Below, one piece after another: positions 19,111 to 20,970 of a stretch of 64,000 nucleotides of DNA. Source of the stretch: Cenococcum geophilum. Taxonomy: Eukaryota. The stretch is from positions 15,314,001 through 15,378,000 of the forward strand of contig CP158635.1 of NCBI GenBank assembly GCA_050273025.1, in the 5' to 3' direction. The notes beneath the pieces are model-generated. The model did no database searches and was not told where the DNA came from. It saw only the letters and a list, made by a program, of their open reading frames with translations. Each line of letters opens with the position of its first letter. The stretch's first letter is position 1. The translations under genes and the position numbers were made by a program.

Positions 19111-20970
19111 TTAGGCTCGGCCTGCAGATTCCCCAGCTGCTATGCCAGCATCTCGGACCCCTCTCTCAAGATCGATATTATGGAGGTCTGGGAGATCCAA
19201 GGAAGGACCTGCTCGAGTGATATCGGACTTATTTTTGCACTTTTCTAATGTTGCAATCGTCTCAAACGATTCTCTTGGAATTGTATCAACAATATCTGTG
19301 GTGCCGGCTGTATCTGGCCTTGAAGGATCAGATGTGGCAGCCATATATTCGTCGTAGGTTTTGCCAGCCTTCTTGGCGGCATGCCGTATATGACGAGTGC
19401 GATAAAGCCAGACAAATTGGGAGGCGAATATGCCGAGCTCGAGGAAGAGACTAGCGCGGAGATTAGCACGGTATTGCGCTTCCAGGGTTAGTAATATTGG
19501 ATAAAGGACAGGTGAGATAAGATGGTTTGAAGTTCCGAGGTTTAGTTAGGAAGTTGCCCAAATTTTGAAACATCAAATACGGAAATAAAAAGGATTTTGT
19601 GCACAAAATCCCGGTGGTTAAGAGAGCTTAATGGCGCTGTAGGAGCATGGGATATATGAAGTATCACGAACCAGACAATGTAGAGTGTTCCGCCAAGATA
19701 GTCAAATGTGTTTTGAGCAACTAAAAGAGTAATTAGTAAATGGGCTCTTAAGTTCTGAAACTACGGGACGTATTTGACTAGCCATACCTAGTGCCGCCAA
19801 CGAAAAGAACGCTCCAAACCAGTCTATGGTAAGAAAGATGAAGTCTAAACAATGTCAATATATGTTCTACATCTTGGATAGGCTGCCTTTTTGAAGGATC
19901 TCATACTGATGCCAATAACCCGACCTCCACGCTTCGCTAGTTCATAGTATGGCGGGATGAGGCCGGCGGCTAAGATAACAGACGCGATGACGCCGATCAT
20001 GGTGAGAGGCCAGGAGACTCCTCTCGAATAGGGACCCTAGAGGAATTTAGAGAAAGAATTCATAGTGTGAGAGCTTTGAGAATAATACTCGTAAGGTTAG
20101 AATCAGAATGGCCTCAACAACTCCAAATCCAACAGCCAGTATGATGGTGATTAATGAGGCAGTCCAAGTTCTCCAGCCACTGTAACTAAATCAGTAAACT
20201 TCGAAGGTAGCTGAGGCATTCCAGGAACTCACTTGTGGTAAACAAGTGTTTGGCCCCAGCAAACTAGGCACAGGAGACCGAAGCACTGCGGCTGGACTTG
20301 GATTGGGATATTAAAGTTCTGTTGGTTGTTAGAAAAGTCATGTGTGGGATAGAGTCAATCAGAACTGGCCTGTACGACGGAATAGATGCCGAATGGCACA
20401 GCGCCTAGCATATTTCAGCTGTGCCTGCAAAATAGGACGTATATATCGCGCATACATGAAGCCCAGAGCATGACCATCAAGCCAGGAAGACCATCGGTCT
20501 CCTTTAGTCGCCAGTTGTGCCATATTCTTCACATGGTCAGCATATTCTCACGTTTTCAGACAGCCTCACACATACTGAGGAATGAGCTGGTGGCACGATG
20601 TTAGCTTTTTGTTCATGCTGAGAGAATAAATGTCAATGGAGGCCTTACCTGAACGCACCAGCACCTTCATCGCGCCCGAAAGCGTCAGCAACTGCAGTCT
20701 CCTAGAGCATTTCCATCTTGACATACACTAGATGAATGTGAGTGAAGAGCGAATGAACTGTAAGTGGCGAGTCTCCTTACCAGTGCCAATTGTCTACGTG
20801 TCCATAGTGTGTTGGTTAGGGATCCATTACTTATTGCACTACGGCAGGCAGATGTAGTGAACGTACCCCTAGAATGTTCGCAGCCTTCCGGGTCAAAATA
20901 TCAGCATGGGAATGGAGCTCGGCTTTTGCACGAAATTACGCACAGGCGGGATTGAAGTCTGAGGGGCCAT
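19111..20970 (-). CDS. PQ-loop repeat membrane protein, 14 predicted exons including micro-exons of 27, 18, 13, 1, 16 and 11 nt
   Basis: Spliced translation: MAPQTSIPP|AANILG|TIGT V CWCVQ|LIPQ|IWHNWRLKETDGLPGLMVMLWAS|CAVPFGIYSVVQ|NFNIPIQVQPQCFGLLCLVCWGQ...GLIPPYYELAKRGGRVIGI|...FLTIDWFGAFFSLAAL|VAQNTFDYLGG...|CLFLELGIF...; stop at 19111. Confidence 0.88.

Follow-up and report, generated by a model that had tools for sequence, protein, structure and literature searches.

The 64,000-nucleotide stretch of Cenococcum geophilum DNA analysed here, called the window in the following (GenBank assembly GCA_050273025.1, contig CP158635.1, positions 15,314,001 to 15,378,000), carries on its minus strand a PQ-loop gene, whose coding region extends from 20970 to 19114, comprises 14 exons and 13 introns, encodes 314 amino acids (aa) and is closed by a TAA stop codon at 19113-19111. 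All coordinates given below for features of the window refer to the minus strand, so that the coding sequence is read from 20970 down to 19114. The element in question is the predicted exon 4 of this gene, which consists of a single nucleotide (nt), the T at 20727. It follows exon 3 (20793-20781, 13 nt, ACAATTGGCACTG), which encodes TIGT and contributes the G that opens the next Val codon, and it precedes exon 5 (20664-20649, 16 nt, GTGCTGGTGCGTTCAG), which provides the closing G of that codon, continues with CWCVQ and is followed by a gtaagg donor. Two introns separate these pieces: intron 3 (20780-20728, 53 nt, GTAAGG...CTCAC...CTAG) and intron 4 (20726-20665, 62 nt, GTATGT...GCTGAC...AAG). 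Val20, with the codon GTG, would in this way be assembled from three exons, i.e., from the G at 20781, the T at 20727 as middle base and the G at 20664, and the expected spliced reading at the junction of exon 3, T and exon 5 is GGCACTGTGTGCTGG. This arrangement had been proposed in an earlier note on this DNA; when the minus-strand letters of the window were reread, every coordinate of that note proved to be exact, as did the letters of the T and of the 53-nt and 62-nt introns.

The protein product of the gene provides a first argument that the T is kept in the mature message. With the 43-aa exon at 20036-19908 as a query for homologues, near-identical intron-free proteins were found on Logan contigs. 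One of these, P0012, is an open reading frame (ORF) of 314 aa, which begins MAPQTSIPPAANILGTIGTVCWCVQLIPQIWHNW and is present on 15 intron-free Logan contigs; intron 4 is absent from ORFs of this type. An exhaustive exon-chain search was performed from the ATG at 20970, allowing for GT/GC..AG introns of 35-400 nt and taking the exact P0012 translation as the target. It yielded seven chains that give P0012, all seven of which use the one-nucleotide exon, and they differ from each other only past the last residue (one of the seven only runs into the stop, TAA after 19114). Chains that give P0012 without the T were not found in this exhaustive search. The product of the window is therefore identical to P0012 at all 314 residues, and it is also identical to the correct parts of the public Cenococcum geophilum models. 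Moreover, the peptide TIGTVCWCVQ is present in five more intron-free 314-aa ORFs, namely the P0012 cluster mates P0001, P0018, P0019 and P0020, and P0002 from a second cluster, which is 91% identical to the window over the queried 43-aa exon. The PQ-loop family in Pfam (PF04193) matches P0012 at residues 11-69 (68.3 bits vs. a cut-off of 22, E=4.9e-19), and the cluster of micro-exons therefore encodes the first PQ-loop, the only one that reaches the Pfam threshold. A sequence search of the PDB with the product matched no solved structure.

The letters around the T are those expected of two independent introns. A canonical acceptor and a canonical donor flank the single base (ctag|T|gtatgt at 20727), and within the 116-nt interval from 20780 to 20665 this T is the only AG-N-GT site. 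Both introns are complete on their own, each having a donor, a branch-site-like motif, an acceptor and a length typical of the gene; the branch motif of the 53-nt intron, CTCAC, is unlike the CT[AG]AC of its relatives. By eye, there is no obvious likeness between the two introns. In 20,000 mononucleotide shuffles of the 116-nt interval, an AG-T-GT that leaves two introns of at least 38 nt was obtained 837 times (4.2%), and in 39 of the shuffles (0.2%) the donor additionally had the form GT[AG][ACT]G[TC]. Joining exon 3 directly to exon 5 results in ACTGGTGCTGG, which is a frameshift.

The earlier note had also proposed a comparison of orthologous loci, and this comparison extends the arrangement far beyond the window. 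Metagenome contigs were scanned with an alignment of 13 homologues, which led to 64 loci, and the motif of the first loop was found in 44 of them. Exon chains were then sought with a strict 25-residue pattern, for which the restriction to GT donors gave one chain per locus. The succession of exons of 18, 13, 1, 16 and 11 nt, each followed by an intron, was recovered in 14 of the 44 loci, including L003, where the last two introns are lost. In 27 loci, the stretch is one continuous exon in which Val or Ile is kept, and the remaining three gave no chain: L048 displays the 18-13-1-16-11 layout by eye and was missed for a V where the pattern demands T or S, L027 is continuous, and L004 is cut by the end of its contig. 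The AG-T-GT layout is thus kept in 15 metagenome loci, which together with the window represent 10 distinct lineages. The single base is T in all 15, within a codon that reads GTG, GTT, GTC or GTA (Val) or ATT (Ile). Its flanking introns measure 49-57 and 55-63 nt and are each equipped with a donor, a branch motif (CTAAC or CTGAC) and an AG of their own; the sequences of these introns are unalignable between lineages. As a control, the same strict search on the reverse strand gave no chain in any of the 64 loci (485,062 bases). The relatives of the window are Cenococcum and Glonium (order Gloniales), and the diverged loci are nearest to Pleosporales by blastx (Alternaria 88%, Parastagonospora 85%, Pyrenophora 81-84%), a placing that is based on summed identities and is rough. 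The layout is ancient and common to the Gloniales and several lineages of the Pleosporales.

Several observations accompany this survey. In L003, an Alternaria-like locus (from 6048 upstream), the one-base exon and its two introns are kept and the two introns downstream are lost, leaving a 43-nt exon; the T layout can therefore outlast its neighbours. In the 27 continuous loci, which belong to other fungi, a single exon covers the 75 coding bases that begin with AAN.. and end with ..IWHNW, corresponding to either a gain in the lineage of the window or a loss elsewhere. Less stringent searches were rejected: with a looser residue pattern and no limit on the introns, L004 and L020 yielded absurd chains made up of many exons of 1-3 nt, which shows that micro-exon searches invent exons unless the target is strict. 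Likewise, allowing GC donors gave spurious extras, i.e., a second chain in L011 and exons of 4 nt, or of 2 and 2 nt, beside the continuous exon in L044-47 and L055.

A match at the nucleotide level is available for one of the related loci. L002, a contig of 5,074 nt that belongs to a different data set, is 100% identical to the exons and the upstream flank of L056-58 and lacks the introns. The 115-nt spliced chain predicted for L056, L057 and L058 (18+13+1+16+11+56 nt) is present in L002 exactly, and the T-less version of this chain is absent from it.

The window itself was compared with two data sets of RNA contigs (X17 and X9), a run of raw RNA reads (X21, about 12% of the run, with 169 reads placed) and a DNA data set (X5). 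Record 8 of X5, a contig from an independent sample, corresponds to window positions 19979-20819 without a single other letter or gap. A sequencing error, which the earlier note had named as a possible pitfall, is therefore unlikely. The X5 contig is also unbroken through the exon-intron junctions, which would argue against an intron-less copy in the same genome. Two metagenome contigs, L021 (99.1%) and L022 (96.5%), have the same structure around the site base for base. Between exon 2 and exon 5, introns included (20649-20884), the window and L022 differ at two positions in about 236 nt, compared with 96.5% identity over the whole 649-nt alignment; this may reflect intron constraint, or chance.

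In RNA, the micro-exons are confirmed by the letters that X21 reads carry between their joints: exon 6 in six reads, exon 3 in three, and exons 2 and 3 together in two. The joint that removes intron 3 (20727 to 20781, skipping 53 nt with ends CT..AC) was found in two further X21 reads and in one X9 contig. Intron 3 is removed efficiently: the depth of X21 in the bin that holds it (20725-20791) is 0.84, as compared to about 12-15 in exons, and the bins that lie mostly in introns 5 and 2 (20591-20657 and 20792-20858) have depths of 1.21 and 0.82. Intron 4 behaves differently, with an X21 depth of 10.5 in its bin (20658-20724). It is retained in record 4 of X17 at a depth of 45.6, vs. 76.8 for the main exon contig, and in record 13 of X9 at a depth of 29.1 vs. 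156.1. Such transcripts read TIGTVYVKMEML and then encounter a stop, and the early stop probably renders them non-productive. The intermediates with one intron removed, which the earlier note had recommended looking for, were thus found in one of the two possible forms: intron 3 is spliced and intron 4 is retained in records 4 and 5 of X17, in record 13 of X9, and in seven X21 reads (2+3+2). Record 13 of X9 even keeps introns 1, 2 and 4, yet is without intron 3. For the reverse intermediate, with intron 4 gone and intron 3 kept, no joint is listed in the four runs, and the 116-nt joint that would skip the T is likewise listed in none of the four, with the proviso in both cases that contigs drop rare variants. 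Transcripts that have lost intron 3 and still contain intron 4 are abundant in three data sets, as opposed to the unlisted reverse form and the unlisted 116-nt skip. In this organism, intron 3 therefore leaves first and intron 4 follows slowly, which supports the inference of the earlier note that the two are removed in order. The additional suggestion that skipping of the exon might act as an on/off frameshift switch finds no support: a regulated alternative micro-exon would be seen both included and skipped, in proportions that change with condition, and the variation seen here is retention of the downstream intron.

The ends of the main exon contigs point in the same direction. Both in X17 and in X9, these contigs stop precisely at 20664 and carry 27 loose letters, which are exons 6 and 5. 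We infer that the assembly graph branches at 20664, and that the contig with retained intron 4 is one of the branches. A direct joining of exon 3 to exon 5 would extend the identity with the retained form by one letter, and the other branch would therefore have to start with a different letter, which fits the T.

Taken together, P0012 needs the one-base exon, 10 lineages share it, and L002 matches it at the nucleotide level; we therefore consider it very probable that the base at 20727 is a true exon of one nucleotide, which is kept in the mature mRNA of a PQ-loop (PF04193) membrane-protein gene of this Gloniaceae fungus and supplies the middle base of Val20 (G|T|G) in the first PQ-loop helix, with intron 3 leaving first. 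A number of points weigh against this interpretation. The expectation of the earlier note that spliced RNA would read through the T was borne out exactly for the L056-58 chain in L002 and, for the window, at the level of the ORF, but the window's own junction at the nucleotide level (ACTGTGTGCTGG) is in no alignment of a read or contig. Because the aligner cannot place a chain of 13+1+16+11-nt exons, it lists no joint at all for the removal of intron 4, which speaks neither for nor against the mature form, and the fully spliced form of the window allele is shown only as an ORF (P0012). Furthermore, the X21 depth of intron 4 is close to that of the exons, which implies that most of the mappable X21 transcripts are the non-productive retained form. 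The share of intron 4 retention, about 59% in X17 and about 19% in X9, is a rough figure, obtained by dividing the k-mer depths of contigs, and the order in which the introns leave is deduced from steady-state intermediates, not from kinetics. As contigs drop rare variants, the reverse intermediate or a T-skipped form may exist at low frequency. Finally, the steric argument for sequential splicing, to which we now turn, is the speculative part.

According to the proposed mechanism, the introns on either side of the T would be recognised one by one, by intron definition. Intron 3 would be removed first, joining exon 3 to T|GTATGT, and intron 4 would be removed only afterwards, akin to recursive splicing that leaves one base behind. 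As only a single base separates the intron 3 acceptor from the intron 4 donor, two spliceosomes presumably cannot sit there together, and splicing would have to be sequential. The dependence on order would be steric and not sequence-based, because the removal of intron 3 hardly alters the exon side of the next donor (GTATGT, with T at position -1). A slow or inefficient second step would then lead to a build-up of transcripts that retain intron 4. Recursive splicing takes place in long animal introns at zero-length exons, so-called ratchet points (AG|GT), where the upstream part of the intron is spliced to a site that presents a new donor. The PQ-loop exon resembles ratchet points in that the donor is presented at once and is used in a second step; unlike them, it is kept as one base and lies between introns of about 55-60 nt, whereas ratchet points leave no base and are situated in very long introns.

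Whether the slow second step has a function is a separate matter. The one-base exon might serve as a regulatory gate, if the removal of intron 4 were deliberately limiting and condition-dependent and thereby set the output of the transporter via the ratio of productive to retained transcripts. We regard this as doubtful. Retention of intron 4 does vary between data sets, from about 19% in X9 through about 59% in X17 to a majority in X21, and introns 2 and 5 are found far below intron 4, with depths of 10.2 and 6.13 of 76.8 in X17 for the bins 20792-20858 and 20591-20657, and with the X21 values of 0.82 and 1.21 given above; the near-identity of the exon 2-exon 5 interval to L022 (two differences in about 236 nt, against 96.5% over 649 nt) would fit a gate as well. 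However, intron 2 is equally deep in X9 (29.1), where record 13 retains it together with intron 4. The ratios are approximate, being drawn from different strains and from samples without controls; steric grounds alone would lead one to expect slow removal, and intron sequences are not conserved between lineages. Somewhat more doubtful still is a built-in kinetic gate, in which the one-base distance would make intron 4 recognisable only once intron 3 is gone, and by which the fungus would tune the output of its PQ-loop transporter through retention and early stop. If a gate function were true, it would explain why the T layout has survived since before the split of Gloniales and Pleosporales while neighbour introns were lost (L003).

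The remaining alternatives deny that the T is spliced into the message of the window at all. It is very improbable that the fully spliced transcripts originate from another, intron-poor copy, and that the window locus yields only non-productive RNA with intron 4 retained. Such a copy would agree with the X21 coverage of the intron-4 region, which is nearly as deep as that of the exons, but P0012 equals the conceptual product of the window at all 314 residues, and the spliced contigs contain no other letters when compared to the exons of the window. In a de Bruijn assembly, moreover, an intron-less copy would be expected to break the X5 contigs, which are unbroken from 19979 to 20819, and L002 is 100% identical to the intron-bearing L056-58 locus including 1952 nt of upstream flank.

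Even less credible is a single 116-nt intron (20780-20665), with the missing base being due to an error in sequencing or assembly, or with the gene being a frameshifted pseudogene. The public Cenococcum geophilum models P0010 and P0011 do read the locus in this manner (...DNWHW|CWCVQ), and the T-containing junction is directly in no joint listing. Against this, record 8 of X5 is identical without gaps, L021 and L022 carry the same bases, a skip of 116 nt appears in no joint listing of the four runs, the P0012-type ORFs are full length and require the T, and the same T lies between two introns in 10 diverged lineages.

Just as implausible, and rejected in the earlier note as well, is a reading of the 116-nt interval as a nested twin intron (a stwintron of the [D1,2] type). 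Excision of the inner gtaagg...ctag would then recreate a donor (G|TGTATG), and the T would be lost together with the outer intron. Stwintrons are well documented in Pezizomycotina (PMC5587772) and, once intron 3 is gone, ACT|GTGTATGT does present a GTGTAT donor one codon position upstream. However, the T-less product ACT+GTGCTGG.. reads T-V-L-V-R-S in a shifted frame that loses LIPQ and mismatches P0012, P0012 is not obtained from any chain that lacks the T, L002 as a spliced contig does not contain the T-less form, and at 20727 two separate introns leave a base between them. The ORF evidence refutes the stwintron as the productive route.

With the one-base exon accepted, the public annotation of the gene can be assessed, and gene predictors fail at this site, as the earlier note had anticipated. 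In both Cenococcum geophilum models (P0010 and P0011), exon 3 is joined straight to exon 5, and the frame is mended by an invented N-terminus (...DNWHWCWCVQ). The model of Glonium stellatum reads through the homologue of intron 4, and that of Lepidopterella palustris starts past the first loop. The comparison covered 64 named genome-annotation models that we assign to the Dothideomycetes, the class having been looked up for three of the taxa. An intact motif is present in only three of the models, from Periconia macrospinosa, Cryomyces antarcticus and Bipolaris maydis, and the Bipolaris maydis protein may be a paralogue. Twelve models carry the frameshift peptide expected from omission of the T (xGVF or xGVY), five have G, R or GI at the site, three skip exons 3-5, and the rest have missing or aberrant N-termini, all of these categories being rough, as they are based on regular expressions. 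The motif is present in all 16 full-length ORFs derived from contigs. Since 61 of the 64 models have a faulty first PQ-loop or none, family alignments, domain calls and structure predictions for this transporter in these fungi start from damaged sequences. Models from outside the Dothideomycetes (P0123, P0119 and P0126) look damaged at the same site, too: Cercophora scortea has R there, the region is skipped in Xylona heveae, and Thelocarpon has an insertion. Judging from these sequences, the layout may reach beyond the Dothideomycetes.

One-nucleotide exons have been documented before, and the following comparison draws on the partially available text of the respective reports. In Fusarium, a one-nucleotide exon in the CYP621A P450 gene (AG|G|GT) was claimed as the first fungal case; it was confirmed by public RNA reads, and an unusually long "intron" had served as the clue (Nelson and Syed, 2026, PMC12940212). 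The PQ-loop exon has much in common with it: both are found in a fungal nuclear gene, consist of one base between two short canonical introns, supply the second position of a codon within a conserved motif, are kept in orthologues and are missed by annotation (PMC12940212). In contrast, the base in CYP621A is G, which fits the consensus of both splice sites and was argued to be favoured, and its conservation is reported in Fusarium/Nectria species only (PMC12940212), whereas the base of the PQ-loop exon is T in all 10 lineages, which span Gloniales and Pleosporales. The PQ-loop exon is also different from CYP621A (PMC12940212) in being part of a run of five micro-exons, for which RNA gives the order of removal and the retention of the downstream intron. 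A constitutive 1-nt exon is known from Arabidopsis APC11 (Guo and Liu, 2015, PMC4674806). Like the PQ-loop exon, it is needed for the reading frame and is mis-annotated in databases; unlike the PQ-loop case, which is computational, the plant gene was tested with GFP-fusion constructs (PMC4674806). A long-read annotation of Coprinopsis cinerea listed 13 exons of 1 nt in 13 genes (PMC12230235). These are fungal 1-nt exons as well, and omission of micro-exons breaks gene models there, too; however, they represent a genome-wide count in a basidiomycete (PMC12230235), to which the PQ-loop case adds data on a gene, its conservation and its splicing order. With stwintrons of the [D1,2] and [A2,3] types (Fekete et al., 2017, PMC5587772), the locus shares two consecutive, order-dependent splicing reactions within a short stretch of Pezizomycotina DNA. 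A stwintron, however, has an inner intron that splits a splice signal of the outer one, and it leaves no base in the mRNA, whereas the PQ-loop gene has two separate introns and keeps one base.

A literature search of partial coverage found no published one-base exon in a PQ-loop gene and no published T exon. The PQ-loop exon is a further case of the documented one-nucleotide exons, which is real, conserved and misannotated. It is set apart from the documented cases by a T instead of the consensus-friendly G, by its occurrence in two Dothideomycete orders, by its position in a run of five micro-exons, and by the order of splicing and the bottleneck seen in RNA. The locus therefore offers a natural substrate for the question how the spliceosome handles an acceptor and a donor that are one base apart under intron definition.

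The surroundings of the exon are unusual as well. The first six exons measure 27, 18, 13, 1, 16 and 11 nt, and intron density between 20970 and 20576 is extreme, with six introns within the first 86 coding bases. Exon 1 (20970-20944, 27 nt) encodes MAPQTSIPP and was placed by the chain search; two X21 reads join 20943 via exons 2 and 3 to 20728. Exon 2 (20884-20867, 18 nt, AANILG) was obtained in the same way, and three X21 reads have exon 3 between 20728 and 20867. Exon 6 (20586-20576, 11 nt) encodes LIP and contributes the CA of the following Q, and six X21 reads carry TGAGGAATGAG between 20526 and 20649. Exon 7 (20526-20456, 71 nt, IWHNWRLKETDGLPGLMVMLWAS) was identified by the chain search and by RNA joints.

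Further downstream, an intron with a GC donor (20369-20319, 51 nt, GCCAGT...CAG) separates ...YSVVQ from NFNIPIQ. Its joint (20318 to 20370, with ends CT..GC) is present in six X21 reads and in contigs of X17 and X9, and the NCBI model P0010 drops VQ at this position. X21 joins 20179 to 20236 with TTA between them (eight reads), and X17 and X9 show a 53-nt skip instead, which looks like a strain difference at the intron border. Of the 13 introns, 12 measure 49-73 nt. The remaining one, the only long intron of the gene (19671-19451, 221 nt), also persists unspliced in contigs of its own in X17 (depth 15.7) and X9 (depth 11.7), which occur beside the spliced joint. In the Pleosporales-like loci L002, L007, L019, L025 and L058, the same neighbour gene (...IVEVDNPRHSDFLA...LYENYRTE...) is located about 4.5-5 kb upstream, and in L002 both genes are carried by the one intron-free contig.

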